This document shows, in pieces, positions 13,612 to 48,974 of a DNA stretch of 64,000 bases. The stretch covers positions 209 to 64,208 of the forward strand of contig CAXUFI010000001.1 in NCBI GenBank assembly GCA_964250245.1, written 5' to 3'. How positions within the stretch are numbered: the first letter of the stretch is position 1; every line of letters starts with the position of its first letter. Source of the stretch: an uncultured bacterium. Lineage in GTDB: Bacteria > Vulcanimicrobiota > Vulcanimicrobiia > Vulcanimicrobiales > Vulcanimicrobiaceae. Made by a program: the position numbers and the translations under genes. The notes below the pieces were generated by a model. It searched no databases and had not been told where the DNA came from. It was given only the letters and a program-made list of their open reading frames with translations.

Positions 13612-15962
<2,351 letters not shown>

Positions 15963-19096: not shown

Positions 19097-19224
19097 TTTG
19101 GCCTCTTAAAATTGCGTGTTAGGAAATATCAGTTGAATAAACACGCGCATGTAATATAGTTTAAGCTACTCAATTAGTTGAGCGGTCTTGGCAAACCAAT
19201 GACTTCTCGTTGCGCTTGCCAGCC

Positions 19225-25421: not shown

Positions 25422-25434
25422 TAGTCCTCAATCT

Positions 25435-30894: not shown

Positions 30895-31520
30895 TTTCCG
30901 GTAGCGGCGTTCCTCGAGGATTCGAGTACGAATCTTATCGACGTCGCCTCGTCCCTGGCAGCGAAGCAATGCAGCTTTCACGATCCGCCTTACGCACGCG
31001 AGACCGTCCGCCGGCTCGTTCCAGCGACGGTAACTCTGTATTCGCAGGTAGAGGGCGATCTCGCTCGACGCTTATCGAACGCGTACGACACGCTCGCCGT
31101 GCAAGGTCTCACCGACGTGTACTTCGTCAGCGCGGATATCGCGACGTTGCCGTTACGCTTATGTTGCGCACGCCTTCGCGACACTCGCCAGGCACGGGCG
31201 CCGTCGTCGGCCCGGCTTCGGACGGTGGCAACTATTTGATCGGCCTGCGTTCCGCATGCCCGCAGCTGTTCGAGCGGATCGATTGGAGCACGAGTCGCGT
31301 CTTCGCGCAGACCTGCGAGCGCGCGATCGAGCATGGCATGTCGCCCGCTACGCTTCCCGAGTAGTAGGACGTCGATGATGTCGTCGGGCTTGCGAGGCTA
31401 CGCGCGGAACTTTTCGATTCGCAGACGCCTTTCGTCCGCGGTGAACCGGCCCCGCGATCGAAGGCGTATCTCGTATCGTTAATGGCATCCGACCGGATGC
31501 CGCGAGCTACGCTCAAGTAA
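30895..31520 (+). pseudogene. DUF2064/TIGR04282-like glycosyltransferase pseudogene
   Basis: Lacks the N-terminal ~35 codons. Frameshift after ADIATLP. PEWYDVDD of the intact copy reads PE-TAG-TAG-DVDD here. Confidence 0.7.
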
Positions 31521-32333
31521 CGCGCCCTCTCGGTTGTCGCTCGCCCGCATTTGCGGCGAAGCGTAGCATCGCGCGGGCGGGAATGTCGAGCGGCACGATC
31601 GCCCGCGCCAACAGATAGTCCGTGTCGAGACGCCCGTCCCGCACGGTCGGCGTCCCGGGGCTCAAACACGCGCCTTCGGCCGTCAACGTCGATTCGGCGG
31701 GAAGTTCGTCGAACGCGACGTTCACCCCGAGCGCGTTATTTTGCGCACGCCCGCGACCGACGATCGGTCGCAACACGTGATCTTCATCGGGAATGCCGAG
31801 CGACCGATGGAGCCAGCACAGGCGCTCAAGGTCGGGTGTCTCCGTGTCTTCCACCGTCGACCCGACGCGCACGCGCAAGCCGGCGGCGCGTAGCTTCGGT
31901 ATCGCCGCCACCACGCTCGCGTAATTTGCCCGCCGCGCAATCCGTCGTTCGCATCGGCGTCGGCCGAATCGAGCGACATCTGAAGCGCGGGCGGAAGTCC
32001 GCCGAGCGGCCGTAATTCTGCGAGCAGCAGTTCGGTTAAGAGCGTCCCGTTGGTGAGCACAACCGTTGGAAGCCGCAGTGCCAAGTGCCGCAATATGCGC
32101 GGCATCGCCGGCAACATGAACGGTTCGCCTCCCGTAACTCCGAAAGCGGTAAAGCCGGGCGCGACGGCCTCATCCGCCGCCTCGATGATGCTGTCTTCGC
32201 TTAAGATGCGACGCGGCGCGTCGGGTTTCGACTCGGTGAGGCAATAGCGGCAAGCGAGACTGCAATGGTAGTTGGTGTAGAACCATAGCCGACCACCGAG
32301 CGCTTCAGACGCGATCGCCGCACCGACGTTCAC
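31513..32333 (-). pseudogene. Radical SAM pseudogene (paralog of 43388..44209)
   Basis: The N-terminal part (LWFYTNYHCSLACRYC...SLDSADADANDGLR) and the C-terminal part (VAAIPKLRAAGLRVRVGS...) lie in different frames. Confidence 0.7.
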
Positions 32334-32790
32334 GCGATTCCTATCCTGGTACACAAACGATTCAAAGGGATCGTCGTTCCCGCAAACGTCGCGAACTCGA
32401 CAATCTGATCGTCGCGGAAGAACGGCTTGAGAAGCGGTACGGCTTCGGCCGGCCGCACGCACATCGCTTCGGCAAAAACCGTTAACGCACGCTCGCCGGC
32501 GTTCATGGTCGATGGGAACGGGAGCCCCATACTGCAAACTCGCCGCTTCTTCTGCATAGAGTCCGGCTTCGACCGCGAGCGTCGCTTGGACGCGCATGCA
32601 ATCGCGGCACCCGTTCAGCGCGGACCCGCGTACGATGACGATTCTTTTAACCGTTCCGGGATCGCGGCGAGCATTTTGCGCGGGTCCGCAAGCACGAGAA
32701 TCTCATAGGCGGCGGCTTGTCCGTCCCCTCGCCTTTTGCTTGTCCGGCGAACTTTCCGTGTCGAATGCTTACTGCGACGACGGCTCGAGG
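32330..32790 (-). pseudogene. CMD/AhpD-like (CxxC) pseudogene (paralog of 44206..44700)
   Basis: Pieces in three frames are collinear with the intact copy: AGQAKGEGTD.., IVIVRGSALNGCRDCMRVQA.., FPSTMNAGERALTVFAEAMCVRPAEAV... The upper boundary is approximate. Confidence 0.55.
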
Positions 32791-32825: not shown

Positions 32826-33623
32826 CTAGTTTGCGAGCAGCGACGGACTGAGGTGCCGGCGTCCGGACGTATCCAAGCGTTCGTCCCAAGCAGCGAGCAA
32901 CGTTATGGCGCGATTACCTACCGCGATGGCGTTACGAATCGCATACGAGACGTCGCGGCGCTCGCCCGTCGCGCGATTCGACTCGACGGAACACACGCTG
33001 CCGCAGCGACGCTTGAGCAAGCTGCCGAGAACGAACAGCGCCGCCGCTTCCATTTCGAATGTCAGTACGCCGTAAGCGCGCATGCGCTCCACGACTCCGC
33101 GAGAGGGCAGCTCGATTTCTACCGGTAACGCGTTGCCCTGGCCGGCGAAGAACGAGTCGGTGCTCGCGGTTAAACCGACGGCGTACGGTAAGCCGAGTTG
33201 TTCGCATGCTTCGACGAGCGCGAACGTGACGACGCGATCGGCGATAGCCGGAAACTCCGGCTCGCAGTAAGCATTCGGGCCGCCGACGAGTCGCACGGCC
33301 CCTTCGTGAATGACGAGCGTCCCGAGTTCGACCTCCGGCTGGATCGCGCCGCACATGCCGACGCGAATGAACGTGTCGCTCCCGGCAACCGAAAGTTCGA
33401 CGAGTGCGATCTCGGCCGACGGCGCACCGATCCCGGTCGAACACGCTCCGAGCGCGACGCCGTCGAGGCTGCCGCGTGCGAAGCGGAACTCGCGATTGAA
33501 CGAAACTTCTTCGAAGCCGTCCCACGTCGAGGCGATCGTTGGAACGCGCCCCGGATCTCCCGGCATCAGCATGTAGCGCGGGGCGCGCTCTTCCCCGGTA
33601 AGAACGTGGGCTTTGAACGTCAT
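32826..33623 (-). CDS. Nucleoside phosphorylase (PNP/UDP family 1, uridine-phosphorylase-like)
   Basis: 265 aa. PGDPGR, CSTGIGAPS, RVGMCGA and FEMEAAALF motifs. Its ATG overlaps the upstream stop (ATGA). Confidence 0.8.
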   Translation of the reverse strand: MTFKAHVLTGEERAPRYMLMPGDPGRVPTIASTWDGFEEVSFNREFRFARGSLDGVALGACSTGIGAPSAEIALVELSVAGSDTFIRVGMCGAIQPEVELGTLVIHEGAVRLVGGPNAYCEPEFPAIADRVVTFALVEACEQLGLPYAVGLTASTDSFFAGQGNALPVEIELPSRGVVERMRAYGVLTFEMEAAALFVLGSLLKRRCGSVCSVESNRATGERRDVSYAIRNAIAVGNRAITLLAAWDERLDTSGRRHLSPSLLAN

Positions 33624-34732
33624 GCGATGCTCCTTGCGATGACCGCGACCGGGCCGCCGCCGGGCGGCCCTTGGTGTTCGGCGCCTCCCGAGACGTAGAT
33701 CGCCGCCGTTCCCGCGAGTCCCGCGAGCAGACCCCCGAGCGCGGCTCGCGCGTGTCGCGTCGCGCTGATGTCGGTATCGTCGAGCATCGTGTGACGCGCG
33801 CCACGAATCGTTCCATCGGGCGACGCTTCGGCTTTCGCAAACACGTTAACGATGCGTTCGGGCGGCGTGCCGGCGAACGCTTTCGCCGCACCTGCGAGAT
33901 CGATCGCGTCGTCCATCACCGAGTGCGCGATCGTGAGCGCGCCCGGCACCCCCGGCGCGTTACCCATTACGATAATCACATTACGCAGCAACTCTATTCC
34001 GGCCGATGTTGAGGCAACGCCCGACGTAAGCTCCCACGCGGCCAGCACGGCGTCGTCCGCAATCGGTCCGTGCACTTCGCCGAGCGCGAGCGCGACCCCG
34101 AGCGCGGAAGCCCCGCGGGAATACGCCATCGAATGGTAGGCATCGCCCGTTGCGGTCGCGCGACCCCGTCGCTTCGCCTCTTCGACGCGCGCCGCGGTCA
34201 GCAACGGACACTTGATTTGCACGAAATGAACGTCGCCGGCGTGCGCGATGCCGGCATCCCGCACGGCCGCTCTAACCGCGCGTGCCGTTTCGTCGATTTG
34301 CGCGTGCCGCCCGATCTCTTCGGGCAAGAAGTCTCGCGTGGTGGCGATGCCGATCGCGAGCCGCGGTTGGCCCGAGGGTGCGGAACCATCGGGAACGCGC
34401 GCGAACACGGTAAGGTGCGGACTGAGCACGCCTTCGGTTCCGCCCGACATAACGATCGCGACGCGCGCATCGACATCGGCTCGCGCGACGTCGAGCCGTT
34501 CGGCAATCAACGAAGCGGTAACGTGGTGCGCGTACTCGCGCGTGAAATCGTTGACCCCGCCGTTGCCTTCGGTTTTTCCGAGAATCGCGACGATGTGTCG
34601 CGCATCCACCTGCCCGTCGTCGAGTGCGCGGCGCAATGCGGAAACGTCACCCGGGCCGCTCGTCGCAAAGCGGAAGACGTCTGCTCGATATGCGGTCACG
34701 CCGGAATGTTCGCTCGCGCGATCCCTATGCAT
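33620..34732 (-). CDS. Ring-opening amidohydrolase of the AtzD/TrzD cyanuric acid hydrolase - barbiturase family
   Basis: KTEGNGGVNDFTR, MSGGTEG, VQIKCPLLT, SRGASALG and SGGAEHQGPPGGGP. The three-fold repeat signature of this family is recognisable. The exact start is uncertain. Confidence 0.85.
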   Translation of the reverse strand: MHRDRASEHSGVTAYRADVFRFATSGPGDVSALRRALDDGQVDARHIVAILGKTEGNGGVNDFTREYAHHVTASLIAERLDVARADVDARVAIVMSGGTEGVLSPHLTVFARVPDGSAPSGQPRLAIGIATTRDFLPEEIGRHAQIDETARAVRAAVRDAGIAHAGDVHFVQIKCPLLTAARVEEAKRRGRATATGDAYHSMAYSRGASALGVALALGEVHGPIADDAVLAAWELTSGVASTSAGIELLRNVIIVMGNAPGVPGALTIAHSVMDDAIDLAGAAKAFAGTPPERIVNVFAKAEASPDGTIRGARHTMLDDTDISATRHARAALGGLLAGLAGTAAIYVSGGAEHQGPPGGGPVAVIARSIA

Positions 34733-34753
34733 CTCGCCATCCGCTTACTGCTT

Positions 34754-36115
34754 TCACGACGCGATGAGCGTGCGTACGACAACGCCGGCGGCAGCCGACA
34801 GTCGCGCGAGGTCGACGCCCACGACGGCGCCGTTTCCGACGACGATACGGCCGGAAGCGAGCACCGTCCGCGCGCCTGCGCTCCCACAGATGATCGGGCC
34901 GACCGCCGGATCGTGCAGGCCGGCGTAGCGCGGATGGTCGAGCGAGAAAATCGCAAGATCGGCGATCTGGCCCGGTGAGATCGTGCCGAGCGCGGACAAA
35001 CCGAGCACGTCTGCGCCGCCGGCCGTGCTCCAGCGGACGACGTCCTCGGGGCGCAAGGCCGCAGCCCCGGAAACGGCGCGCTGCGCGAGCCATGCGGCGT
35101 GGACTTCGCTCGGCATGTCGGCGGCTTCGTTCGAGGCTGCACCATCGACGCCGAGCGAAACGCTTACGCCGCGTGCGTCGAAGCGAACGGCCGCCGCCGT
35201 ACCCGCGCCGAGTCGCGCGTTGCTCTGCGAGCAGAGCGCGATGCCGGTTCCGGCTCGCGCGAGTTCGTCCGCTTCGCTCGAATCCACGTGAACCGCGTGC
35301 GCGAACCATACGTCGCGCCCGCTCCAGCCGTGCCGCGCGAGCCACGGCACCGGCCGTTCGCCGTAACGTTCTTCGCAGAACGCGACGGAAGCGGCCGTTT
35401 CGGAGAGATGCGTATGCAACATGATACCGAGCGAACGTGCGGCAACGGCGATTTCGCGCAGCTCGTGCGGTGCGATCGAGCCGAACGGCAGGTTCGGTGC
35501 GAACGCGACGCGACGCATCGCATCCGGAGCCGGATCGTGGTATCGCTCGGTGAGTTCCGAGACGCGGCGCAGCATCGTGTCGAGCGATTCCGAGGGCAGC
35601 GGACGCAGGTGCGCACCGCAGACCTCGGCCGCAAGGGTAGCCCCGCCGCGCGCGAGCACGAGGCGCAGTCCGAGCCGTTCCGCGACCGCGAAGAGTACGT
35701 CTGCGGCCTCCGTCGTATCGTCTTCGCCATACATGAGATGATGGTCGACGGCGGTCGTCGTTCCGCCGAGCAGCAGCTCCACGACGGCAATCGTCGCGGC
35801 GATCTCCAGGGCAGCCGTGTCGATGCGGTACCAGTAGCGGAACAACACTTCGCGCGCCCAGTCCTCGAGCGGTCGCGAAAGTCCCGCCGGCACGCCCTTG
35901 AGCACGCTTTGAGCGAAGTGATGATGCGTGCTGATCGAACCCGGATACACGACGCAATCCGTCGCGTCGATCGTTCGTTCGTGCGGGATACGCTCGATCC
36001 GGCCGAGCGCGACGATGCGGCCCGCGCGAATGTGAATGTCGCCCGTGGCGCGCTCTTGCAGGCCCGGCCGGCCTGTGAGAATGGCGCTCGCGTTTCGAAT
36101 GACGGTGTCGGTCAT
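34754..36115 (-). CDS. Amidohydrolase-superfamily deaminase (8-oxoguanine deaminase / chlorohydrolase-like, COG0402 type)
   Basis: 453 aa. PGSISTHHHFAQ, GGTTTAVDH, HTHLSET, AHAVH and GVDGAASN metal-ligand pattern. Confidence 0.8.
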   Translation of the reverse strand: MTDTVIRNASAILTGRPGLQERATGDIHIRAGRIVALGRIERIPHERTIDATDCVVYPGSISTHHHFAQSVLKGVPAGLSRPLEDWAREVLFRYWYRIDTAALEIAATIAVVELLLGGTTTAVDHHLMYGEDDTTEAADVLFAVAERLGLRLVLARGGATLAAEVCGAHLRPLPSESLDTMLRRVSELTERYHDPAPDAMRRVAFAPNLPFGSIAPHELREIAVAARSLGIMLHTHLSETAASVAFCEERYGERPVPWLARHGWSGRDVWFAHAVHVDSSEADELARAGTGIALCSQSNARLGAGTAAAVRFDARGVSVSLGVDGAASNEAADMPSEVHAAWLAQRAVSGAAALRPEDVVRWSTAGGADVLGLSALGTISPGQIADLAIFSLDHPRYAGLHDPAVGPIICGSAGARTVLASGRIVVGNGAVVGVDLARLSAAAGVVVRTLIAS

Positions 36116-37446
36116 GCGACCGCGCGAACGAGTCTTCGTGCGAGGGCGGCGAGGGCACGATCCGCGAACGCGGGACCGATTAACGTAACGCCGATCGGCA
36201 CGCCGTTCGCATAGCGATCCGATGGAAGCGCTACGGCACAGAGATCGAATAAATTAACGAAGTTCGTGTACGTGCCGAGCGTGGCATTGGTTCGGTATGG
36301 GTCGGCTGCGACCTCAGCGAGCGTGTAGATCGTCGGCGACGTCGGCACGAGCATCACCGGAACGGTACGGAAAAGCGCGTCGCTCGCGCGGCGCAAATCG
36401 CGCACGCGATATTGTGCGCGAAACGCATCGATCGCGCTGAAGCGGCGGCCGCCCGCGACGATCGTGCGCGTCACTTCGAGCAATGCAGCGGGATGCGCGT
36501 CGGCGAAGTCGCCGATCGCGGCCGTGCGTTCCGCAACGAACGCGTCTTCGTACAAGAGTCGCCCGGCCTCCGCAAACGGCGCGAAATCGAAGGCAACGGT
36601 TTCGCATCCGCTTCGCTCGAGGCGCGCGACCGCGCGGTCGAACGCCGCCTCGGCTTCGTCGTCCCCGCAAAAAACGCGGCCCGCCTGCGTGGGCACCGCA
36701 AAGCGAAACCGCTCGCCGCTCGGTGCGCTCGGGAACGTCGCTGCTCGCGAGTAGGGTTCGCGTGCATCGAACCCCGCGAGTGCCGCGAACACGGCTTCCG
36801 CGTCGTCGACGGCCGGAGCGAAGATCGAGACGCAATCGAGCGAACGGCACGCCGGCACGACGCCGGCCGCGCTCACCACACCGAACGTCGGTTTCAAGCC
36901 GACGATGCCGTTGAAGCCCGCCGGAATGCGTCCCGAACCTGCGGTATCCGTTCCGAGCGCGAAACTCACGAGTCCCCGGGCCACTGCCGTTGCCGAGCCC
37001 GAACTCGAGCCGCCCGGAATATAGCGCCCGTCGAACGGATTACTCGGAATGCCGTAGGGCGAGCGCGTGCCGACGAGACCCGTCGCGAACTGATCGAGAT
37101 TCGTCTTGCCGACGAGCATCGCGCCCGCTGCCTCCAAGCGTTCGACGACCGTCGCCGAGCGTTCGGGTACGTATGCGAACGCAGGACAGCCGGCCGTCGT
37201 CGGCATGCCCGCAACGTCGATGTTGTCTTTAACCGCGAACGGCAAACCGAAGAGCGGGAATGCGGCGCGACGGTCGCGCGGTACGGCATCGAGAACGCGC
37301 GCCCGTTCGAGCAGCGTTTCGGTCGTGACGCGCGCGATCCAAATGGCCGCGTCGCTCGCATCCGCAGCCGCCAGCGTCCGCACGGCGACCTCCGTCACAC
37401 GTTCGCCCGCGGCGTAGGCCGCGCCGAGCGACGGGCGATCGTTCAT
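36112..37446 (-). CDS. Amidase-signature enzyme, allophanate-hydrolase-like (amidase domain only)
   Basis: 444 aa. GLPFAVKDNIDVAGMPTTAGCPAFAY, GKTNLDQFATGLVGTRSPYG, GGSSSGSA and GTDTAGSGRIPA. Lacks the ~150-aa C-terminal domain of full-length AtzF-type enzymes. Confidence 0.8.
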   Translation of the reverse strand: MNDRPSLGAAYAAGERVTEVAVRTLAAADASDAAIWIARVTTETLLERARVLDAVPRDRRAAFPLFGLPFAVKDNIDVAGMPTTAGCPAFAYVPERSATVVERLEAAGAMLVGKTNLDQFATGLVGTRSPYGIPSNPFDGRYIPGGSSSGSATAVARGLVSFALGTDTAGSGRIPAGFNGIVGLKPTFGVVSAAGVVPACRSLDCVSIFAPAVDDAEAVFAALAGFDAREPYSRAATFPSAPSGERFRFAVPTQAGRVFCGDDEAEAAFDRAVARLERSGCETVAFDFAPFAEAGRLLYEDAFVAERTAAIGDFADAHPAALLEVTRTIVAGGRRFSAIDAFRAQYRVRDLRRASDALFRTVPVMLVPTSPTIYTLAEVAADPYRTNATLGTYTNFVNLFDLCAVALPSDRYANGVPIGVTLIGPAFADRALAALARRLVRAVA

Positions 37447-38777
37447 CCTGCGACCGGTACGTTTCCGGCGCCCACCGCGCCGGATTCTTCGAGCGTTTGC
37501 GCGAGAGCGAAGAGTGTCGCCTCGCTCCCCGGAGGCCCGATCAGTTGAACGCCGACGGGCAGCCGCCCGGCCCGGACCACCGGAACCGTAAGGACGGGTA
37601 CGCCGGCGAACGAGATCGGTTGCGTGAATGCACCGGCATTCGAGCGAATGTCGCTCGTGACGCCGTCGAGCGCGATCGTCGTTTGCCCGACGAGCGTCGC
37701 CGGATACGGCGTGGCCGGTGCGAGCAACACGTCATACGACACGAAGATTTCTCGCAACGCCGAGCGCACGTGCGTCCGAAAGCGCTGCGCGAGAACGTAC
37801 CAGCCGGCCGGTACGAGTGCGCCCGCGAGCAGGCGGTCGCGTACGGCCGGATCGTAGGCGCTCGCATGTTCGCGCAAACGACGCAGATGGAGTTGACCCG
37901 CTTCCGCAGCGGTGATGACGAATGCCGCTTTACGCGCGCGCTCCGCTTCTTCGAAGACGACCGTCGCCCCGCCGCCGAGCGCTTGCGCCACCGAGTCGAC
38001 GGCTTCGCGCGCTTCGGGCGTGAGGGCGGTATCGAAGTATCCGCCTAAACGTGCGACGCGTAAGCCCGTCGCGTCCACGGCTCGGACCGCCGTCGTATCG
38101 GCGAGTGCGGCGTAGGCCGCGCGCAAGTCGGCGGCGTTACGCGCGAACGGTCCGATCGCATCCAAACTATTCACGAACGGAAACGCACCTGCGCGCGAGA
38201 GCGTGCCGAATGTCGGCCGTACACCGAAGATGCCGCACAGCGCCGCCGGGACCCGAATCGAACCGTTGGTGTCCGATCCGAGCGAGAGCGGCACGATGCC
38301 GGCGGCAACGGCGGACGCAGATCCGCCGGACGAGCCGCCGGCAATCCGGGCGCGGTCGTGCGGATTGCGCGTCGTGCCGTCATGCGCGTTCTCGGTGGTA
38401 AATCCGTACGCAAACTCATCCATGTTCGTAAGGCCGATTAGGATTGCGCCCGCGCGTTCGAGCGCCGCAATGGCGTCGGCATCGCGGGCGGCCGGTGGAT
38501 CCCTGGCGGTTACCGTGGCTCCCGCTCGCGTGACCGAACCCGCCACGTCGAAGAGGTTTTTCGCTGCGAACGGCACGCCCGCAAGCGGACCGGGATCCGT
38601 GCCCGCGGCGACCTGCGCGTCGATAGACGTCGCCCGCGCGAGCGCTCGTTCATCCAGCGTCGACGTGAACGCATTTAACGTCGCACTCGCGCGGACGGCC
38701 TGCAGCGCGGCCGTAACGATCTCTCGCGCCGACGTTCGGCGGGCGCCGACGTCGGCGGCGATGCTCGAAGCGCTCAC
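37443..38777 (-). CDS. AtzE-family amidase (1-carboxybiuret hydrolase-like)
   Basis: 444 aa. GLTNMDEFAYGFTTENAHDGTTRNPHD and IAGGSSGGSASAVAAG match my recollection of the AtzE family. 4-nt overlaps on both sides. Confidence 0.8.
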   Translation of the reverse strand: MSASSIAADVGARRTSAREIVTAALQAVRASATLNAFTSTLDERALARATSIDAQVAAGTDPGPLAGVPFAAKNLFDVAGSVTRAGATVTARDPPAARDADAIAALERAGAILIGLTNMDEFAYGFTTENAHDGTTRNPHDRARIAGGSSGGSASAVAAGIVPLSLGSDTNGSIRVPAALCGIFGVRPTFGTLSRAGAFPFVNSLDAIGPFARNAADLRAAYAALADTTAVRAVDATGLRVARLGGYFDTALTPEAREAVDSVAQALGGGATVVFEEAERARKAAFVITAAEAGQLHLRRLREHASAYDPAVRDRLLAGALVPAGWYVLAQRFRTHVRSALREIFVSYDVLLAPATPYPATLVGQTTIALDGVTSDIRSNAGAFTQPISFAGVPVLTVPVVRAGRLPVGVQLIGPPGSEATLFALAQTLEESGAVGAGNVPVAG

Positions 38778-38959
38778 GGGGTGAAAGCGGCGGCGATCTC
38801 GACGTCGTCCGCGAGTCCGAACGCGGCGACGTCTGCGGCGTACGCGGCGATTCGTTCCATCACGGTGATGACCGTTGCGCGATATCCTGCTGCAATCGGC
38901 AACTCGAGCGCCCGCGCACTCGCATCGACAAAATCTGCGATCGCATCGTCGTCGTTCAT
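38774..38959 (-). CDS. AtzG-like small subunit (DUF4089)
   Basis: 61 aa. FVDASARALELPIAAGYRATV...ERIAAYAADVAAFGLADDVEIAAAFTP. The size, position immediately upstream of the AtzE-like gene and the ...FTP ending fit DUF4089/AtzG. Confidence 0.6.
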   Translation of the reverse strand: MNDDDAIADFVDASARALELPIAAGYRATVITVMERIAAYAADVAAFGLADDVEIAAAFTP

Positions 38960-39108
38960 GCCCTCGGGCGTTCTACAAGCCGCGCGTTATGTCTGGCTCG
39001 AGCGCACAAACATCGCTTCGCGCACGCTGCACTCGGCCAGCGGAGCGCGCCGGGAATGGGGCGCTGGGGCCGATTCGCGCGGTCGTCTTCGATCTTTTCG
39101 GAACTCTC

Positions 39109-39915
39109 CTAGCGGAACGTAACCGACGCCGCGCCGAGGCCTGCGATACGGGCTTCGATAACGTCGCCCGGGCGGACCGCAATGGCATCCGTGATCGCGC
39201 CGCTCAAGATAACGTCGCCTGCTTCGGCCCGGTGTCCGTGCGTCTGAAGGTGTGCGGCGAGCGCCGTGAGCGCGTTGAGCGGATCGCCGAGGACGTCGGC
39301 GGTCGAGCCCGCGAGGATCACGATTCCGTTGCGCAGGAGTTCCGTCGAGAGGTTGCCATAGTTCGGTGCGTTCGCAAGCGCGATCGACGGCGCGAGCACG
39401 TAGGCAGCCGACGACGTGTTGTCGGCGACGAGTTCGACTGCGGTACGCACGCCCGAACCGTACCGGCTATCGGTAATTTCTAAAGCGGGTGCGATCGCGG
39501 CGACGCTTGCGGCGAGCGCCTCGCGATCCATCGTCGCGTCGATCGTGCGCGCGAGCACGATTGCAATCTCCGGTTCCGCACGCGGCGCGATGAGCGATGT
39601 GTAGGAGAACTCCGCTCCGTCGAGCAGCTCTGCGCCTGCGAATAGCCGCCCGAAGAGCGGATGATCGATGCCAATGACGCGTTGTTTGACGCGGCTCGTA
39701 ATGCCGAGCTTCCAACCGCGAAGGATCGAGCCGGCCGCGGTACGGCGTGCCACGAGCGCGTCCTGTACGGCGTACGCGCCGTTCAGGCTCAAGCCGGCCA
39801 GCCGTTCCGGCGGCACGATGCCACGGCGTGCGGCATAGGCCTCGAAAAGAACGTCGGCGAGTGCTGCGATCGTTGCGTCAGGTTTCTGCGGACGGCGTTC
39901 AGGTGCTTGCGACAC
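39109..39915 (-). CDS. FAH-superfamily 2-keto-4-pentenoate hydratase / 4-oxalocrotonate decarboxylase-like protein
   Basis: 268 aa. GWKLGITSRVKQRVIGIDHPLFGRL is the MhpD/XylJ/XylI-type motif. Confidence 0.75.
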   Translation of the reverse strand: MSQAPERRPQKPDATIAALADVLFEAYAARRGIVPPERLAGLSLNGAYAVQDALVARRTAAGSILRGWKLGITSRVKQRVIGIDHPLFGRLFAGAELLDGAEFSYTSLIAPRAEPEIAIVLARTIDATMDREALAASVAAIAPALEITDSRYGSGVRTAVELVADNTSSAAYVLAPSIALANAPNYGNLSTELLRNGIVILAGSTADVLGDPLNALTALAAHLQTHGHRAEAGDVILSGAITDAIAVRPGDVIEARIAGLGAASVTFR

Positions 39916-41110
39916 GGGTCATTCGTTCTTTCGCGAGTTTCTCTCGCCCGAGCGCGATTGCGATCAGCGCGAACGTCGTGCAGTAGCAGGCTGCGGCCAG
40001 TGGAAGAGCCGCCTGCGTTCCGAAGCCCTTGACGACCCACGCGCTTATTGCGGGGGCCGCAGTACCGCCGACGGCAGAGGCGAACAGCAGCGTCGTCACG
40101 AGAGATGATGCCGCCGCTTCGAATTGCTCCGAGCCGATGGACAGCATCAACTTGTACATGCACGTCGAGGAGAATCCCAAAACGAATGTGACGGCGAAGA
40201 ACGCGCGCTCGTCATGGATCTGCGTCAATGAAAGCGTGCACAGCGCACCCGCGGTTACCGCCGTAATAAGAACCGAGCGGGGTGAAATTCGCGAGACGAG
40301 AACTGCCGCGGTCAGCAGGCCTAAGCTCGACATCCCGTAATAAGCGCTCACGATCGCTCCCGCTTGCGAAGTCGCAACGTGCAAGTCGGCATGCAGATAC
40401 GTCGGCGCCCATATCGTGAACGTATTCTGCCCCATCAGGTACGTAGCGAGCGCCATCCCGAACAGGATCACGCCGCTATATTCGCGTCGCTGCGCCACGA
40501 CCGGGGCCGAGGCCGCGTCCAAGCTTTTCCTCCGCCCGGTAACTCCCGGTAAGCGCACGAAGGCAACTGCCACGAGCAAGAGCACCGGCAGTACCGCGAC
40601 GACGATGTAGCCGATCTGCCAGGCAAAGTGCGCGGCCGTTATGGCGCTCGTGATGGCCGGAAAAACGAACCCCGCGCCACTAAACGCGCAGTCGGTTGCG
40701 AGAAACGCTACCGCGCGCACATTGTCACGCGCACTTTCCGCGATGATCACGGCGCCCGCAGAAAGCCCCGTGCCGACACCGAGCCCGATCAACGTCATAG
40801 CGGCAAACGCAAGTCCAAGTGTATGCGTCCCGGTCAAGAGTACCAGACCCACGAAGAACGAACCGTAGGCAGCGAATAACGTTTGTCGGATCGTTAGGTA
40901 TCGGAAAATAAAGAGACATATGAAAATGCCGCCGAGATTTCCGAAATTTAGATACGTGAATAGTATCGCCGTCGCGGGCAAGTCGGCATGAAAGTATTTC
41001 GCAGCCGGTCCCAAAATGATGCCGCTCTGCGTGAAGATCGCTGCAACGATGACATACGTGCCGACCGCTATCGCGAGCGCCGGAAAATTCCGAACGTTTA
41101 AGCGCGGCAA
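39899..41110 (-). CDS. MFS transporter
   Basis: 403 aa, about 12 hydrophobic segments. 17-nt overlap with the downstream hydratase gene. Confidence 0.8.
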   Translation of the reverse strand: MPRLNVRNFPALAIAVGTYVIVAAIFTQSGIILGPAAKYFHADLPATAILFTYLNFGNLGGIFICLFIFRYLTIRQTLFAAYGSFFVGLVLLTGTHTLGLAFAAMTLIGLGVGTGLSAGAVIIAESARDNVRAVAFLATDCAFSGAGFVFPAITSAITAAHFAWQIGYIVVAVLPVLLLVAVAFVRLPGVTGRRKSLDAASAPVVAQRREYSGVILFGMALATYLMGQNTFTIWAPTYLHADLHVATSQAGAIVSAYYGMSSLGLLTAAVLVSRISPRSVLITAVTAGALCTLSLTQIHDERAFFAVTFVLGFSSTCMYKLMLSIGSEQFEAAASSLVTTLLFASAVGGTAAPAISAWVVKGFGTQAALPLAAACYCTTFALIAIALGREKLAKERMTRVAST

Positions 41111-41278
41111 TCGCCGAGTTCCACAGGTATCGTGCTCGCACGGCAGCTTACGGCGCGGGCGTAGGTTTGTCGATTCATTGGGTGACTACTCCACCCGAAA
41201 GCGACAAAATACTGCCGACACATGCACCGTCGTAGGGCATTCCGCTGCCTGTTGCCGTCGTCTCACGCGACCGGCGTT

Positions 41279-42079
41279 TTATCGGGCTAGCGCATAGGCG
41301 AGTGGAATCGAGGAAAACGTTGCCAGCACCGCGGCAGCCGCGCCTCGCTGGCTCGCCAGACCGGGGACTTCCACCAGAACCGCGTGCGCGATATTGGCGG
41401 CCGTATACCCGGCTAAGCGAACCGCGATAAGTGCGGATTGCAACGCGGGCATGACTGGGTTGAACGCGGAATTTTCGGCGTAGCGGCCACGAAAGATCGT
41501 GCCGTCGTGCATCGACACGGCGACGCCGGCGAACGTACCGCTATACGGAGCGTAAGAGCGGCAAGCGGCGGCGAGCGCGGCGTTCACGAGTGCGCTCGCG
41601 GACTTTTCAACCAACTTCAGATCGGCGTGCGCGTGAAAGGGATCGGAAGCGCTTTCGACCGGCGGACAGAACGGCAGGGCCTCTGCGAGTGTTGCCTCAC
41701 GATCCGGCATGAAAATGGCGAGCTTGGCCGGGGCCACGAACTCGCGCAAAAAGTGGCGGCAGTAGCCGCAGGGCACCGCGGTGACGGCGAGTGAGACGAC
41801 ACCGGCTTCATCGTTAAGCCACGCGTTGTTCACGGCCGCGCCTTCGGCGTGAACCGTGTGGGCGAGGGTCTGCCCCGGGAATTCGAGGTTCATCCCGGCG
41901 TATAGCGCCCCCGACGTGCCTTCGGCGATCGCGCCCACGAAGCGGCCCGAGATCGGTGGATCGGCGTAACGGAGCGCCCAAGCGAGGAGCTTTCGCATAA
42001 GCTCGGGTTTGGTAATGCCGCTGGCGGCGACGCTTCGGGCGGAGACGACGCCGCGCGTGGCTGCGAGCCTCGGGATCAA
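41279..42079 (-). CDS. cdd: Cytidine deaminase, two-domain (homodimeric Cdd type)
   Basis: 266 aa. HAEGAAV...VPCGYCRHFL zinc motifs, plus the second pseudo-domain SYAPYSGTFAGVAV...GRYAENSAFNPVMPALQSAL. Confidence 0.8.
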   Translation of the reverse strand: MIPRLAATRGVVSARSVAASGITKPELMRKLLAWALRYADPPISGRFVGAIAEGTSGALYAGMNLEFPGQTLAHTVHAEGAAVNNAWLNDEAGVVSLAVTAVPCGYCRHFLREFVAPAKLAIFMPDREATLAEALPFCPPVESASDPFHAHADLKLVEKSASALVNAALAAACRSYAPYSGTFAGVAVSMHDGTIFRGRYAENSAFNPVMPALQSALIAVRLAGYTAANIAHAVLVEVPGLASQRGAAAAVLATFSSIPLAYALAR

Positions 42080-42666
42080 CGCGACGTCGACGTCAATGTC
42101 TCCTATCCCACCCGTCCGATCGGCGGCTCGGTCATGCAGTCGTCTTCCGTCATTGGAAATGAACGCCTTTGGGGTTGAGAGAGGCGCTACGAACGCTCAT
42201 CGGAGCAACATCGATGTAAAGCCTACGATGTCCGTTGGGAACCTGCGCGCGTGCCTCGGCCGACATGTTTGCGCTCGTACGACGGTTCATCGCGCGTATA
42301 GCGGTCCCGCGGTAATACCGGCGCTGCGTGTCGTTCTATCTCTCGGCGGAATCTGCGGAAGCGGCCTAACTCAGAGCGCTTCGCAACGATCATCGAGTGC
42401 CGCAAACTCCAGAAAAGATGTTGCATCGCTCGCCGGCTTAGGGCGGCTCCGTATTCCGAAGCCGATGCCCTGACGCTTACCGCATTTCCCGGCGCGCGGA
42501 CGTACGGACTCAAGAGGGTTCTACGGTTAACACGAAGCCGGGAACCTTCGGTTCTCCGGCTAACGTACGAACGCACCGCAGCCACACATTGGCCGGCCTC
42601 GCGCCGTATCGCCGGCACAAAAGATCGGTGGTCCGGACGCGCGTACCGAGTGAGACGAGGATCCAT

Positions 42667-43395
42667 TTGCTAGCGACACGGCGAGCGATCGCGCTATTCG
42701 CGAAGTCTCCGGTAGCGTCCGCGGTTAAAACTCGTCTCGTCCCTCCCCTCACGCAAGCGGAAGCCGCGGCTCTTGCGAGCGCGTTCCTCGAGGATTCGAG
42801 TGTCAACCTTATCGACGTCGCGGCTTCGCTCGCAGCCAAGGCGTGCATCTTTTACGATCCACCTTCTGCCCGCGACGCCATCCGCCGGCTCGTACCGGCG
42901 ACCACGCTTCTGTATCCGCAGGTAGAGGGCGACCTCGCTTGCCGCTTATCGAGCGCCTACGACACGCTCGCTCGCGAAGGTCTTACCGACGTCTGCTTCA
43001 TCGGCGCGGATAGTCCGACGTTGCCACGTACGTACGTCGCCGCTGCCTTCACCACGCTCGGTGCAGGCACCGACGCCGTCGTCGGCCCGGCTTCCGACGG
43101 AGGCTATTATCTGATCGGCCTGCGTTCCCCGCGCCCGCAACTTTTCGAGCGGATCGATTGGAGCACGAGTCGCGTCTTCGCGCAAACCTGCGAACGCGCG
43201 GCCGAACACGGCATCGCGCTCGCTACGCTCCCCGAGTGGTACGACGTCGACGACGTCGTCGGGCTTGCGAGGCTACGCGCGGAACTCATCGATTCGCCGC
43301 CACCCGGCATACGCGGCGAACCGGCACCGCGGACGAAAGCGTTTCTGTTATCCTTAATGGCATCCGACCGGATGCCGCGAGCTACGCTCACGTAA
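42667..43395 (+). CDS. DUF2064 / TIGR04282-family glycosyltransferase-like protein
   Basis: AIALFAKSPVASAVKTRLVPPLT...GDLACRL...GADSPTLP...VVGPASDGGYYLIGL...IDWSTSRVFAQT. The start (TTG 42667) is uncertain. Its 3' end overlaps the convergent rSAM gene by 8 nt. Confidence 0.8.
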   Translation: MLATRRAIALFAKSPVASAVKTRLVPPLTQAEAAALASAFLEDSSVNLIDVAASLAAKACIFYDPPSARDAIRRLVPATTLLYPQVEGDLACRLSSAYDTLAREGLTDVCFIGADSPTLPRTYVAAAFTTLGAGTDAVVGPASDGGYYLIGLRSPRPQLFERIDWSTSRVFAQTCERAAEHGIALATLPEWYDVDDVVGLARLRAELIDSPPPGIRGEPAPRTKAFLLSLMASDRMPRATLT

Positions 43396-44209
43396 CGCGC
43401 CCCGTCGGTTGTCGCTCGCCCGCATTCGCGGCGAAGCGTAGCATCGCGCGGGCAGGGATGTCGAGCGGCACGATCGTCCGCGTCAACAGATAGTCCGTGT
43501 CGAGACGCCCATCGCGGACGGTCGGCGTCGCGGGGCTCCAGTACGCGCCTTCGGCCGTCAACGTCAATTCGGCGGGAAGATCGTCGAACGCGACGTTCAC
43601 CCCGAGGGCGTTGTCGCGCGCTCGCCCGCGACCGACGATCGGTCGCACCACGTGATCTTCGTCGGGAATGCCGAGCGACCGGTGCAGCCGGCACAGCTGC
43701 TCGAGGTCGGGCGACTCCGTTTCTTCCACCGTCGACCCGATGCGAACGCGCAAGCCGGCGGCACGGAGCTTCGGTATCGCCGCCACGACGCTCGCGTAAT
43801 TGCCCGCTACGCGTAAGCCGTCGTTCGTACTTGCGTCGGCAGAATCCAGCGACACCTGTAGTGCGAGCGGAAGCCCGCCGAGCGGCTGTAATTCTGCGAG
43901 CAGTCGAGCGGTGAAGAGCGTCCCGTTGGTGAGCACGACCGTCGGTAGCCGCGATGCCAAGTGCCGCAGGATGCGCGGCATCGCCGGCAACATGAACGGT
44001 TCGCCCCCGGTTACGCCAAACGCGGTAAAGCCGAGCGCGACGGCCTCGTCGGCCGCTCCGACGATGGTGTCTTCGCTTAAGATGCGACGCGGTGCATCGG
44101 GCTTCGATTCGGTGAGGCAATAGCGGCAAGCGAGATTGCAATGATAGTTCGTGTAAAACCACAGCCGGCCACCGAGCGCCTCGGCCGCGATCGCCGCACC
44201 GACGTTCAC
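43388..44209 (-). CDS. Radical SAM protein (not ArsS-like; no Cys-rich C-terminal domain)
   Basis: 273 aa. CNLACRYC (CxxxCxxC) plus GVTGGEPF. GTG 44209 overlaps the upstream TGA (GTGA). Confidence 0.8.
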   Translation of the reverse strand: MNVGAAIAAEALGGRLWFYTNYHCNLACRYCLTESKPDAPRRILSEDTIVGAADEAVALGFTAFGVTGGEPFMLPAMPRILRHLASRLPTVVLTNGTLFTARLLAELQPLGGLPLALQVSLDSADASTNDGLRVAGNYASVVAAIPKLRAAGLRVRIGSTVEETESPDLEQLCRLHRSLGIPDEDHVVRPIVGRGRARDNALGVNVAFDDLPAELTLTAEGAYWSPATPTVRDGRLDTDYLLTRTIVPLDIPARAMLRFAANAGERQPTGRVT

Positions 44210-44700
44210 GCAAGCCCCACCGCGGTACAGAAACGATTGAGGAAGATCGTCGTTCCGGCAAGCGTCGCGAATTCGACGATCTGATCGTCGCGGAAGAACG
44301 GTTTGAGAAGCGGTACGGCTTCGGCCGGCCGCACGCACATCGCTTCGGCGAAAACCGATAGCGCGCGCTCGCCGGCGTTCATGCTCGCCGGGAATGCAGC
44401 CCCATACTGCAGACTCGCCACTTCTTCTGCATCGAGTCCGGCGTCGGCCGCGAGTTTCGCATGAACGCGCGTGCAGTAGCGGCATCCATTGAGCGCGGAC
44501 GTGCGTAGAACGACGATCTCCTTTAGGCGCTCGGGCAGCGCCGTCGGACCGTAGACGACCCCGAAGAACGGCATCGCAACTTCGAGGAGTTCGGGAACGT
44601 GCGCCATGAGAGCGGCGAGCGGATCTTGTTCGCCTTCCAGATATTGCTTTGCGAGCAGCGGCGCGTCTTCGTGGGCCATAAGCGGAATTACGTTAGCCAT
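44206..44700 (-). CDS. Carboxymuconolactone decarboxylase/AhpD-like family protein with a CxxC motif
   Basis: 165 aa from MANVIPLM. LRTSALNGCRYCTRVH is the AhpD-type CxxC. Resembles the peroxidase-like partner of TIGR04282/04283 clusters. Confidence 0.8.
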   Translation of the reverse strand: MANVIPLMAHEDAPLLAKQYLEGEQDPLAALMAHVPELLEVAMPFFGVVYGPTALPERLKEIVVLRTSALNGCRYCTRVHAKLAADAGLDAEEVASLQYGAAFPASMNAGERALSVFAEAMCVRPAEAVPLLKPFFRDDQIVEFATLAGTTIFLNRFCTAVGLA

Positions 44701-45500
44701 GCATCCTTCTGTATCTGAAATGGTGAAGTCAAGATCGCTGCGAGCGCGACATCTTCGTCGCTTCGGTACGCGGGCAGGCCCATCGTTCGCGCCGCACTGG
44801 ACGACGCGTCGTTCGTGAACGTCCCATGAATCATATCCCAAACGATGAGCCCCGACGACCAGTTCGCGTTCTGGAGCCGCTCGTTTGCGGCGTGATGGAT
44901 CGCGTGGACGCGCGGCGTTACGATGATACGCGCTAAGCGCTGCTCCCAACTCGCCGGAAGCCGCACGTTCGAATGGTGGAACAAAACGGACGCCGTGAAC
45001 GAGAGTTGCCAGAGCGAGAAGGCGAGCGGCGAGACGCCGATGAGCACGACCTGAAGTGCGCGATACAATATCGAAAGGGCCAGCTCGCCGAAGTGAAAGC
45101 GTAGCGCCGTCGTGACGTCCATGTCGCGATCGGTATGGTGCATCTGGTGAAAGCGCCACAGAAGCGAGGTGCGATGCGCGAGCCGATGCCATACGTACAT
45201 CGTATAATCGAGGAGCAGAACCGCAAGCAACGTCTCGAGCGCGAGCGGTAGCCGAACGACTCTGAGAAGCCCCCAGCGCTTGCGTTGCGCGATGACCGTT
45301 AGCCTGCGCGCGATCGGTGTCTCGATAAGCGCGACCGGTAGCGCGGCCGTAGCCGCCACGATCAGATTGCGACGATCGCGGAGCATCTTATTTTCGCTTG
45401 CGGACCGAAGCGGGCTGCGCACTTCGAGAATGAGGAGTCCGACGAGCTGCAACGCCGTAACGCCTGCGGCCAGCCCGGGCGGGAGCGGCCGAATGCTCAT
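44688..45500 (-). CDS. Fatty acid hydroxylase / sterol desaturase superfamily membrane di-iron enzyme
   Basis: 270 aa. His boxes HRLAH, HQMHH and HAIHH. Hydrophobic N-terminal half. Confidence 0.85.
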   Translation of the reverse strand: MSIRPLPPGLAAGVTALQLVGLLILEVRSPLRSASENKMLRDRRNLIVAATAALPVALIETPIARRLTVIAQRKRWGLLRVVRLPLALETLLAVLLLDYTMYVWHRLAHRTSLLWRFHQMHHTDRDMDVTTALRFHFGELALSILYRALQVVLIGVSPLAFSLWQLSFTASVLFHHSNVRLPASWEQRLARIIVTPRVHAIHHAANERLQNANWSSGLIVWDMIHGTFTNDASSSAARTMGLPAYRSDEDVALAAILTSPFQIQKDAWLT

Positions 45501-45514
45501 CGTAACGCTCGCAG

Positions 45515-46225
45515 GTGCGCGTCTCGATCGTCATGCCGGTTCTCAATGAGGCGCGCGCGCTCGCGCTGCGGCAGGCGGAATTGCCCGTGCAAGCGCCACC
45601 CTGGGAATGGATCGTCGTCGATGGCGGCAGCGACGACGGAACGCCGGAGATCGCGCGAACGCTCGGAGCACGAACCGTGGTTGCCGAGCGCGGGCGCGCC
45701 CGGCAAATGAATGCGGGCGCCGCCGTCGCGACCGGAGATGTCGTACTCTTCTTGCACGCCGATACCACGCTCGCGGCCGGGGCGCTCGACGAGATCCGTC
45801 GCGTCCTGCGGGACCCCGCGGTCGCCGGCGGAAACTTCACGTTGCGCTTCGACGATCCGGCGCTTCCCGCTCGGGTTCTCGCGGCGATCTACGCGCTGCA
45901 ACAGCGTGTGCTCGGCATCTGGTTCGGCGATAGCGCGATCTTTTGCCGCCGGTCGATCTTCGAGCGGTTGGGCGGATTTCCGCAGTTACCGATCATGGAA
46001 GACCTCGCATTCGTCGACCGGTTGCGTACCGCGGGACGAACGATCAAACTTGCTTTGCCGGTTATCACGTCGGCGCGAAGATATCGTGGGCGACTGTTCG
46101 CGACGAGCGTGCGCTGGATAAGCATCTATTCACTCTACCGCCTCGGCGTGGCGCCGAAGCGCCTCGCGCACTTGTATCGGCCACATTCCGAACCTACTTC
46201 GCGCCGTGAAGCCCATCGCCCGTAG
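45515..46225 (+). CDS. GT2 glycosyltransferase, TIGR04283-like
   Basis: 236 aa. VSIVMPVLNE, VVDGGSDDGT, ARQMNAGA, LFLHADT and PIMEDLAF. Its start is only 14 nt from the divergent hydroxylase start. Confidence 0.85.
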   Translation: MRVSIVMPVLNEARALALRQAELPVQAPPWEWIVVDGGSDDGTPEIARTLGARTVVAERGRARQMNAGAAVATGDVVLFLHADTTLAAGALDEIRRVLRDPAVAGGNFTLRFDDPALPARVLAAIYALQQRVLGIWFGDSAIFCRRSIFERLGGFPQLPIMEDLAFVDRLRTAGRTIKLALPVITSARRYRGRLFATSVRWISIYSLYRLGVAPKRLAHLYRPHSEPTSRREAHRP

Positions 46226-48047: not shown

Positions 48048-48974
48048 TTGGTAACGGTAGATCAGGTCGCAGCGCTCGCCCGCGACGCCAGCCTGTCGAG
48101 TTCGTATAAGCCGGCGCTCTTAAAGGCGTTGGTTCGCATCGTGCGAGGCGGAGCGGAGTCGCGGATCTCGCTGCTGCGAATCGGGCATGAGTTCGTCGAG
48201 CTTTATTGGGTTCAGACGGTCGTGTTTCGATTGCGGCAGGCCGCGACCATTACCGCCGAACCGGAAGTCGTACGGCGCATCCGCAGTACCTCGGACTTGA
48301 GTAACGTCCGGCGCCTGAGTGAGTTGCCGGCGGATGCTCGTCTGCGCTTAGACCGCGAGATGGCGCGCGTTCTAACGATCAACGTGCTCGATCGCTTTCA
48401 CCGGAGCGCGCCAAGCGGAATGCCGCGCCTCTACGACTGGCGCCCGGGTGACGATTCCATCACGAGCGACCATCAATCGCTAAGCTTCATCCGGACGAGC
48501 GGGCATGCGCTCGAGACGATCGCTAACCACTGGTGGGCGCGGTACCTCGAGCGCGTCAATATGCTGGCGCCACTAATCATCTAAAAGGTCGAGCGCGACG
48601 GCGCCGAGCGCGGGTCGCTTGCGAAGTACGTTAGAATTCTTCGGGTCACCGATCGTACGCAATGCTTCTATTGCGAACGCCCGATCGACGATGGAGCGAC
48701 GCCGCACGTCGATCACGTCATCCCCTGGAGCTTCCTGCTTTCTGACCCGCTCTGGGATCTCGTGCTTTCGTGTTCGTCGTGCAATCTGGCCAAATCCGAT
48801 GTGTTGCCGGATGCCCGCTATCTCGATAAGCTCGCGGCGGTCGCCGTGGCTCGCGGGAAGCGGACGTTACCGGTCGGCTTTGGCTCGCCGCTCATAACTC
48901 GAGATGAGCTCGATCGCTATTATTCGGCGGCTCTGTCGGTGGAATGGCCTTCCGGTTGGATGCCCGTGGCGTGA
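48048..48974 (+). pseudogene. HNH endonuclease with an N-terminal winged-helix-like domain, interrupted by one in-frame TAA (48582-48584)
   Basis: ORFs 48048..48584 and the HNH part (CFYCERPIDDGATPHVDHVIPW...LSCSSCNLAKSD, ending 48974) share the same reading frame (both coordinates are 0 mod 3). A single stop separates them. Confidence 0.65.

Follow-up and report, generated by a model that had tools for sequence, protein, structure and literature searches.

A cyanuric acid hydrolase gene cluster with a conserved, closely coupled gene for a uridine phosphorylase-like protein in an uncultured Vulcanimicrobiaceae bacterium

The nine-gene cluster and its ring-opening enzyme

The window analyzed here, a 64-kb stretch of contig CAXUFI010000001.1 from an uncultured bacterium of the Vulcanimicrobiaceae, carries at positions 32826-42079 a cluster of nine open reading frames (ORFs), all on the minus strand, in which the gene for a cyanuric acid hydrolase (CAH) of the AtzD/TrzD family overlaps the gene for a uridine phosphorylase-like (Udp-like) protein by 4 nt (Table 1). 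A preliminary description of this DNA had reported nine co-directional genes with five overlapping junctions at these coordinates, which the ORF coordinates and junction lengths bear out: in gene order the junctions measure +168, -17, +149, -4, -4, -4, +21, and -4 nt, and the four 4-nt overlaps connect the genes for AtzG, AtzE, allophanate hydrolase (AH), and an amidohydrolase (Amh) to one another and atzD to udp. The G+C content at third codon positions is uniform across the nine genes (0.70-0.78). Families were assigned from Pfam and NCBIfam profile scores relative to the model cutoffs, and each product matches the family that the preliminary description had named for it. We infer an operon, although the 149- and 168-nt gaps could hold internal promoters.

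Table 1. Coordinates of the cluster genes and of the features that flank them
Feature	Positions	Strand	Profile matches
cdd, two-domain (E. coli-type) cytidine deaminase	41279..42079	-	NF006537, PF00383, PF08211
Major facilitator superfamily (MFS) transporter, TsgA-like	39899..41110	-	PF07690, NF002982
FAH-family protein, MhpD/DmpH/4-oxalocrotonate decarboxylase-like	39109..39915	-	PF01557
AtzG-like small subunit	38774..38959	-	PF13318
AtzE-family amidase	37443..38777	-	NF006631, TIGR02715
Allophanate hydrolase (AH), amidase domain only, 444 aa	36112..37446	-	NF006043, TIGR02713
Amidohydrolase (Amh), PRK12393 family	34754..36115	-	NF009059
Cyanuric acid hydrolase (CAH), AtzD/TrzD family	33620..34732	-	PF09663, NF052395
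Udp-like nucleoside phosphorylase, NP-I fold	32826..33623	-	PF01048
Non-coding stretch (0.7 kb) upstream of cdd, presumed regulatory region	42080..42780		
Left copy of diverged direct repeat: decayed DUF2064 gene and decayed radical SAM gene	30907..32642		
Right, intact repeat copy: TIGR04282-type glycosyltransferase (DUF2064) and radical SAM gene	42781..44517		

The ring-opening protein scores 478 bits against PF09663 and passes both the CAH equivalog model NF052395 (496 against a cutoff of 360) and TIGR02714 (471 against 153). Compared with proteins in the PDB, it gives 386-401 bits to four solved CAHs (from Pseudomonas, Moorella, and others) and 319 bits to a fifth, whereas the barbiturase 5hwe gives 292 bits. 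The AtzD family includes barbiturase, and Peat et al. (PMC3758960) have set out the substrate-contact residues together with five positions that separate the two activities. We used motifs to locate 14 catalytic and specificity positions in an alignment of 202 members of the family. The residues of the three Ser-Lys dyads (Lys42, Ser85, Lys162, Ser233, Lys296, and Ser344 in AtzD numbering) and the substrate contacts Arg54, Gly86, and Ala234 are identical in the window CAH, and its clade, described below, has the same nine residues in 27-28 of 28 members. The CAH signature at Arg195, Thr321, Arg325, Gly345, and Gly346 is complete (R, T, R, G, G), whereas the barbiturase signature (Asn195, His321, Lys325, Val345, Ser/Ala346) is absent. 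In the window protein, as in its clade, each of the 14 positions is of the CAH type. Judged by these residues, the protein is a canonical CAH placed inside the CAH group, and because the full CAH signature is present without that of barbiturase, the ring opened is most likely cyanuric acid itself. A barbiturase identity was ruled out for practical purposes by the same signature residues.

Linkage of the CAH and Udp-like genes in related loci

The proteins of the window occur in public data only on the source contig, and their closest relatives are all metagenomic. Comparison was made over nine distinct loci: the window, L001, L002, L084, L168, L169, L170/171, L174/175, and L176/177. In eight of the nine, all but L176/177, the gene immediately downstream of CAH is a Udp-like one, at a distance of -10 to +5 nt in the relatives. 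Around this pair the gene content varies. L169 has the contiguous seven genes of the window (FAH-AtzG-AtzE-AH-Amh-AtzD-Udp) followed by a convergent gene for a Bmp-type binding protein. The same genes are found in L001 and L170, where genes for a HAD hydrolase and an NMT1 binding protein, both on the opposite strand, separate FAH from atzG; L168 and L174 share this interrupted arrangement but have no amidohydrolase. L002 and L084 hold only Amh-AtzD-Udp and Bmp. Over the nine loci, a Udp-like gene thus follows CAH in eight, Bmp is present in seven, Amh in six, AtzG-AtzE-AH together with FAH in six, and Cdd with the MFS transporter in the window alone. The CAH-Udp pair occurs in four unrelated genomic settings, namely between SUI1 and a methionine-salvage operon, in the setting of L002, in that of L169, and in the window.

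As a control we used 80 soil CAH loci with 57-64% identity, which were among the matches listed in a search of metagenome contigs with CAH. At least 900 nt are available downstream of the CAH gene in 53 of them, and none of these 53 has a Udp-like gene there (8/9 against 0/53, Fisher p = 2.7e-9). Throughout the 80 control loci we found no Cdd, no Udp-like gene, and no amidohydrolase of more than 50% identity. In a neighbor-joining tree the Udp-linked CAHs define a clade of 28 members, from which all control loci and the enzymes of Pseudomonas ADP and Moorella are absent. The prediction from the tree was checked blind on two clade members of unknown context; one has a Udp-like gene and the other does not. 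The linkage between CAH and the phosphorylase is real and is conserved in this clade. The link between nucleoside enzymes and ring cleavage proposed in the preliminary description accordingly stands for the Udp-like gene (eight of nine loci against none of 53), whereas the bracket formed by Cdd and the MFS transporter is confined to one locus of the nine, the window. That description had also named an outcome that would tell against it, a canonical CAH combined with cdd and phosphorylase genes that are not conserved as neighbors: the CAH is canonical and cdd is not conserved, but the phosphorylase gene is.

His69 of the window CAH, four residues after the equivalent of Arg54, is present in all 28 members of the Udp-linked clade and in none of the 174 other family members, and it is the sole fully clade-specific residue that we found. 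At the 14 known active-site positions there is no clade-specific change that might admit an N-substituent. In L176 (10001-13015) and L177 (5187-8201) the stop of the CAH gene overlaps by 4 nt the start of a methionine-salvage operon (Aldolase_II (MtnB-like)-ARD-HAD), and it looks as if the Udp-like and Bmp genes have been deleted there.

The preliminary description knew of no described pathway of this composition. A literature search, whose coverage did not extend to the survey of CAH neighborhoods by Aukema et al. 2020, likewise found no paper that joins CAH to a nucleoside phosphorylase or a cytidine deaminase. The CAH-Udp linkage is the new element here; the degradation pathway itself is already known. 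Soil Proteobacteria of the Bradyrhizobium, Rhizobium, and Herbaspirillum type have CAHs that are 57-64% identical to the window protein with identical active-site residues, but their CAH loci are without AtzE and AH orthologues, a few carrying an amidase match of 27-34%. These organisms probably route cyanuric acid via biuret hydrolase.

Companion enzymes and the proposed substrate

The AtzG-like protein scores 44 bits against PF13318 (cutoff 24), and its gene overlaps atzE by 4 nt. AtzE passes NF006631 (600 against 461) and also TIGR02715 (581 against 426), a profile check that the preliminary description had asked of it. AH passes NF006043 (602 against 487) and TIGR02713 (581 against 511), although it matches only profile positions 12-447 of 600; the C-terminal domain of ~150 aa is absent, and the AH proteins of the relatives are also short (434-446 aa). 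None of the nine cluster products matches AtzH (DUF3225, NTF2-like) in Pfam or NCBIfam. The pathway had been called complete, and it is so for CAH, AtzG, AtzE, and AH, but not for AtzH, which the cluster lacks, or for the C-terminal domain of AH. The FAH-family protein falls below every NCBIfam equivalog cutoff and is MhpD/DmpH-like, its best PDB matches being 8ih6, 1sv6, and NahK at 106-127 bits. Orthologues with 56-66% identity accompany AtzG-AtzE-AH in L001, L168, L169, and L170, and an FAA_hydrolase gene occupies the corresponding position in L174. Because FAH is conserved with AtzG-AtzE-AH (six of nine loci) and is related to metal-dependent decarboxylases, we propose it as a candidate non-orthologous replacement of AtzH that would convert 1,3-dicarboxyurea to allophanate. 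On the strength of these sequence matches, the back end of the cluster very probably degrades cyanuric acid via CAH, AtzEG, and AH. From established chemistry, and by extension from it, AtzEG and AH need 1-carboxybiuret, so that the opened ring must carry three carbonyls.

The closest known counterpart of this chemistry is the atz system of Pseudomonas sp. ADP, which uses the same enzyme families (AtzD for ring opening, AtzEG, and allophanate hydrolase), has atzG and atzE adjacent and overlapping as in the window, and has AtzT near its operon where the relatives of the window cluster have a Bmp-type binding protein. The two differ in that atzD is last in the window cluster and first in ADP, that a conserved FAH-family protein stands in place of AtzH (DUF3225), that the window AH has 444 aa and no C-terminal domain as opposed to ~600 in the ADP type, and that the window cluster has no AtzR regulator. 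The additional genes of the window are those for the Udp-like protein (conserved), the PRK12393 amidohydrolase (mostly conserved), and Cdd with the MFS transporter (window only).

The Udp-like protein scores 119 bits against PF01048 but fails the uridine phosphorylase equivalogs TIGR01718 (216 against 280) and NF008383 (157 against 262); its best PDB match is the uridine phosphorylase of Streptococcus pyogenes (3qpb, 148 bits), of the "UP-2" type. Across the alignment of the Udp-like clade the phosphate residues Arg26, Arg44, and Arg87 do not vary, nor does the ribose motif EMEAA, so that the protein should be an active phosphorylase. In E. coli Udp we take the uracil-binding residues to be Gln166, Arg168, and Arg223, of which Arg168 binds uracil O4. 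Gln162 and Arg217 of the window protein match the first and the last of these, whereas the position of Arg168 is an invariant Asn164. The enterobacterial cdd/udp salvage system has in common with the cluster a two-domain Cdd and a phosphorylase of the NP-I fold in which the sites for phosphate and ribose are conserved, but the window protein differs from enterobacterial Udp in failing the equivalog cutoffs, in being nearer to the S. pyogenes type, and in having Asn for Arg168. To our knowledge, translational coupling to a CAH gene is not described for udp. Udp-like proteins with at least 63% identity form one clade of 35 clusters, the one that descends from the last common ancestor of the CAH-linked copies; two copies that stand alone, in L085 and L087, fall on a single nested branch within it. 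A search of genome contigs with the Udp-like alignment gave distant relatives, with at most 54% identity among the matches listed.

Amh passes the cutoff of NF009059/PRK12393 (578 against 543), a family without known function, and fails the 8-oxoguanine deaminase model NF006055 (392 against 532). Its PDB matches are 2paj (368 bits), which we take to be an isoxanthopterin deaminase, 3hpa (256), AtzB/7ww2 (219), and TrzN (183). By these scores Amh is close to the isoxanthopterin/8-oxoguanine deaminase group, and we propose that it may be an aminotriazine (ammelide-type) deaminase. PRK12393 members on Klebsiella and Qingshengfaniella plasmids (46% identity) differ in context, being flanked by genes for an ABC binding protein and a 2OG-Fe(II) oxygenase rather than adjoining a CAH gene. 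In both Klebsiella pneumoniae (L178, 6991-10420) and Qingshengfaniella (L179, 5429-10485) the PRK12393 gene is always followed by the 2OG-Fe(II) oxygenase gene, with ABC transporter genes before it.

Cdd passes NF006537 (237 against 153) and stays below the cutoff of TIGR01355 (190 against 275), and both cytidine deaminase domains, PF00383 and PF08211, are present. Public gene calls start the protein at an ATG that gives 239 aa (41279-41998), with a 100% match over these 239 aa. Its closest relatives lie in other nucleoside clusters, and some of the matches are named Candidatus Elarobacter or Vulcanimicrobiaceae, a weak hint as to lineage. The closest outside the contigs of the source organism (68%) is in L172 (3186-8591), where its neighbors are two PhyH-type dioxygenases, a 488-aa amidohydrolase (25% identical to the window Amh), and a Bmp-ABC transporter; one of these PhyH proteins shares 80% identity with the PhyH encoded next to the Bmp-ABC genes in L002, a carrier of Amh-AtzD-Udp. 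L172 looks like a second nucleoside-type catabolic module in the same lineage. Another relative of Cdd (61%), in L173 (9081-10954), has an MFS transporter gene facing it and overlaps an Indigoidine_A (pseudouridine-5'-phosphate glycosidase-like) gene at the latter's end. The MFS transporter of the window passes NF002982 (238 against 221), and its gene overlaps the start of FAH by 17 nt; we propose this TsgA-like protein as the importer in the window, where no Bmp gene occurs. The Bmp neighbor found in seven of the nine loci scores higher against the Treponema nucleoside receptor TmpC/PnrA (132 bits) than against AtzT (70 bits). We regard this sequence likeness as moderate, not decisive, evidence for nucleosides: it is downgraded because free guanine and ammeline are ligands of AtzT, a member of this family, and retained because the Bmp neighbor is nearer to PnrA.

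Because a conserved phosphorylase is coupled to CAH, a nucleoside-type binding protein accompanies the relatives, and Cdd is present in the window, we propose that the feedstock is a nucleoside with a cyanuric acid or ammelide base. The cluster would import an N-ribosyl s-triazine nucleoside with a fully oxidized ring, the candidates being cyanuric acid riboside or its amino form, ammelide riboside, through the TsgA-like MFS transporter in the window and the PnrA-like Bmp binding protein in the relatives. In the window only, Cdd would deaminate an amino-bearing compound at the nucleoside level. The Udp-like phosphorylase would then cleave the nucleoside to ribose-1-phosphate and the base, and the PRK12393-family amidohydrolase would deaminate any aminotriazine base to cyanuric acid. 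From there CAH would give 1-carboxybiuret, AtzEG would deamidate this to 1,3-dicarboxyurea, the FAH-family protein, in place of AtzH, might yield allophanate, and the short allophanate hydrolase would release NH3 and CO2. The reading that we favor is that the cluster mineralizes cyanuric acid for nitrogen and draws it from a nucleoside rather than from the free ring; for the whole model, in which cyanuric acid arrives as an N-ribosyl triazine nucleoside, we put the prospects a little below even. A natural source could be the cyanuric acid nucleoside formed by oxidation of 8-oxoguanine in nucleic acids, a product that is a recognized oxidative lesion according to Gasparutto et al. 1999 as cited in PMC1636462. 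The natural origin of environmental cyanuric acid has been described as poorly understood (PMC12342508). The more specific version, a pathway dedicated to N-ribosyl s-triazine nucleosides (cyanuric acid riboside or deoxyriboside from oxidized guanine, or an amino analogue) in which a specialized Udp-like enzyme frees cyanuric acid for the coupled CAH, is a conceivable but distinctly tentative one.

A number of observations weigh against a nucleoside feedstock. The substrate is read from gene linkage. L176/177 has a CAH gene without a Udp-like gene, and Cdd and the MFS transporter are absent from all the related loci. We know of no nucleoside specificity among TsgA-type MFS transporters. NMT1-type ABC systems, which could import the free ring, are present in five related loci (L001, L168, L170, and L174 among them), and AtzT, the Bmp-family protein beside the atz operon of Pseudomonas ADP, binds free guanine and ammeline (PMC6834077). 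The base-binding motif GQxN of the Udp-like protein is common to relatives with 52-56% identity in ordinary deoxyribonucleoside clusters, such as that on a Rhizobium sp. CB3060 plasmid, so the motif alone is no mark of a new specificity. Because stand-alone orthologues (65-67% identity) occur in two related genomes, L085 and L087, the Udp-like protein may be the ordinary pyrimidine nucleoside phosphorylase of that lineage. The main alternative is an operon that scavenges nitrogen from free s-triazine bases, in which cyanuric acid and/or ammelide enter as free rings, Amh is an ammelide (AtzC/TrzC-like) deaminase, and the Udp-like protein and Cdd serve ordinary pyrimidine-nucleoside salvage in parallel; the two enzyme sets would then not act in series, and the cluster would be a general regulon for N-heterocycles as nitrogen source or a guard against the toxicity of uracil analogues. 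The canonical CAH, the presence of the triazine enzymes AtzB (219 bits) and TrzN (183 bits) among the relatives of Amh, the stand-alone phosphorylases, the NMT1-type transporters alongside the cluster, the ligands of AtzT, and the lack of conservation of Cdd are all in keeping with it. It does not readily account for a tight atzD-udp junction that is found in eight of nine loci and four contexts and in none of 53 ordinary CAH loci, for a Bmp protein nearer to PnrA than to AtzT, or for a cluster that at the window's site kept udp and gained Cdd as a second nucleoside enzyme, and we consider it rather doubtful.

The preliminary description had suggested 5-azacytidine- or 5-azauridine-type natural products, with catabolism or detoxification running from Cdd to 5-azauridine and from the Udp-like enzyme to 5-azauracil (or with Amh deaminating 5-azacytosine) before the AtzD-family protein opens the ring. 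Cdd and Udp-like enzymes are known to act on azacytidine-type nucleosides, and Amh is a member of a group of deaminases whose substrates are amino-oxo heterocycles. However, 5-azauracil has a C6-H, and by its chemistry hydrolytic opening would give no 1-carboxybiuret and leave AtzEG and AH without a substrate. An oxidation would have to intervene; cultured Proteobacteria do pair PRK12393 genes with that for a 2OG-Fe(II) oxygenase, an enzyme in principle capable of hydroxylating a ring C-H, and PhyH or 2OG oxygenases are nearby in some relatives (L002, L168, L174), but neither in the cluster nor elsewhere in the 64-kb window is an oxygenase homologue found, all 14 active-site positions of the CAH are as in cyanuric-acid enzymes, and Cdd occurs in one locus of nine. 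We regard this candidate as improbable. The oxidized pyrimidine option fares worse still. It would take cytidine through uridine and uracil to barbiturate with the AtzD-family protein as barbiturase, and Cdd and the Udp-like enzyme would indeed yield uracil in a family to which barbiturase belongs (PMC3758960), as could feed the oxidative pyrimidine pathway of Rhodococcus erythropolis, whose barbiturase shares the Toblerone-fold family with the window CAH. The window protein, however, has the specificity signature of CAH and none of that of barbiturase (386-401 bits against 292), AtzEG and AH have no role in such a route, and neither a uracil dehydrogenase, whose absence had already been remarked on, nor a ureidomalonase is present in the cluster or among the other large window ORFs scanned, so that we give it almost no credence. 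Salvage of methionine from 5'-methylthioadenosine (MTA) would make the Udp-like protein and Amh a phosphorylase and an MTA-type deaminase, as in Pseudomonas aeruginosa, with CAH a neighbor by descent only. The cluster does lie between an S-adenosylmethionine synthetase-CMAS-SUI1 block and the Aldolase_II (MtnB-like)-ARD-HAD operon in L001, L084, L168, L170, L174, and L176, Amh has weak matches to the models for 5'-deoxyadenosine deaminase (206 bits) and MTA deaminase (96 bits), and archaeal MTA phosphorylase is among the distant PDB matches of the Udp-like protein (68 bits). These scores are set against 131-148 bits for uridine phosphorylases and 578 for PRK12393; the Amh-AtzD-Udp trio is without nearby Mtn genes in L002, L169, and the window, the CAH gene sits between the Amh and Udp-like genes, and L176 retains the Mtn genes without either the Udp-like gene or Amh. 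We find this explanation very improbable.

CAHs occur widely among soil bacteria and are believed to be older than industrial s-triazines. If a dedicated nucleoside pathway is indeed encoded here, it would for the first time give cyanuric acid a concrete biological origin that explains these old, widespread enzymes, and an FAH-fold enzyme would have replaced AtzH. The consistent coupling of CAH to a nucleoside phosphorylase already gives rise to a specific and cheaply testable hypothesis, that the ring arrives as a nucleoside, possibly from oxidative damage to nucleic acids, and the cluster offers two enzyme leads, the FAH-fold candidate for the AtzH step and a natural allophanate hydrolase consisting of the amidase domain only. 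If the phosphorylase is an ordinary uridine enzyme, the cluster is merely a lineage-specific arrangement of a known pathway.

Genomic setting of the cluster

Two copies of a 1.75-kb direct repeat bracket the cluster at a spacing of ~11875 nt and are 80-86% identical; the left copy has in-frame stops and a 1-nt deletion that shifts the frame. The position of the cluster in the window differs from that in most relatives. The bracketing repeat, this difference in position, and a block of lower GC content with a defense system on the left suggest that the cluster, udp included, was acquired or moved here as one unit, and the repeat suggests that a duplicate of the flank came with it. A megablast of plasmids with the whole cluster gave no match. 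In the stretch upstream of cdd we found no recognizable regulator gene and no sigma-70 consensus, and the ORFs at 42223-42666 and 42510-42848 have no Pfam match. A promoter scan returned 0 promoter-like sites and a terminator scan 13 terminator-like sites, against 10.1 ± 3.7 expected, and tRNA and Rfam scans of the 64-kb window gave no matches and hence no direct marker of taxonomy.

The lower-GC block (0.51-0.58), immediately to the left at 17975-28914, contains a complete Hma defense system (HmaA, 1398 bits; HmaB, 973; HmaC, 836), in which HmaC carries a Swt1-like HEPN domain at its N terminus, and a GmrSD/NsnA-like gene adjoins it. The right flank (42589-46225) is a cassette that encodes TIGR04282 and TIGR04283 "arsenosugar biosynthesis" glycosyltransferases, an Rv1681-like radical SAM protein, and AhpD-domain and fatty-acid-hydroxylase-family proteins. 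Further to the right lie genes for a DpnI-like restriction enzyme (48944-49702), a STAND-type NTPase (52575-54563), and a DpdE/ZorD-like SNF2 helicase (56807-60202) that gives 694 bits to DpdE. On the far left, at 13612-16949, a catalase-peroxidase (KatG-type) gene adjoins the divergent gene of a LysR-family regulator.

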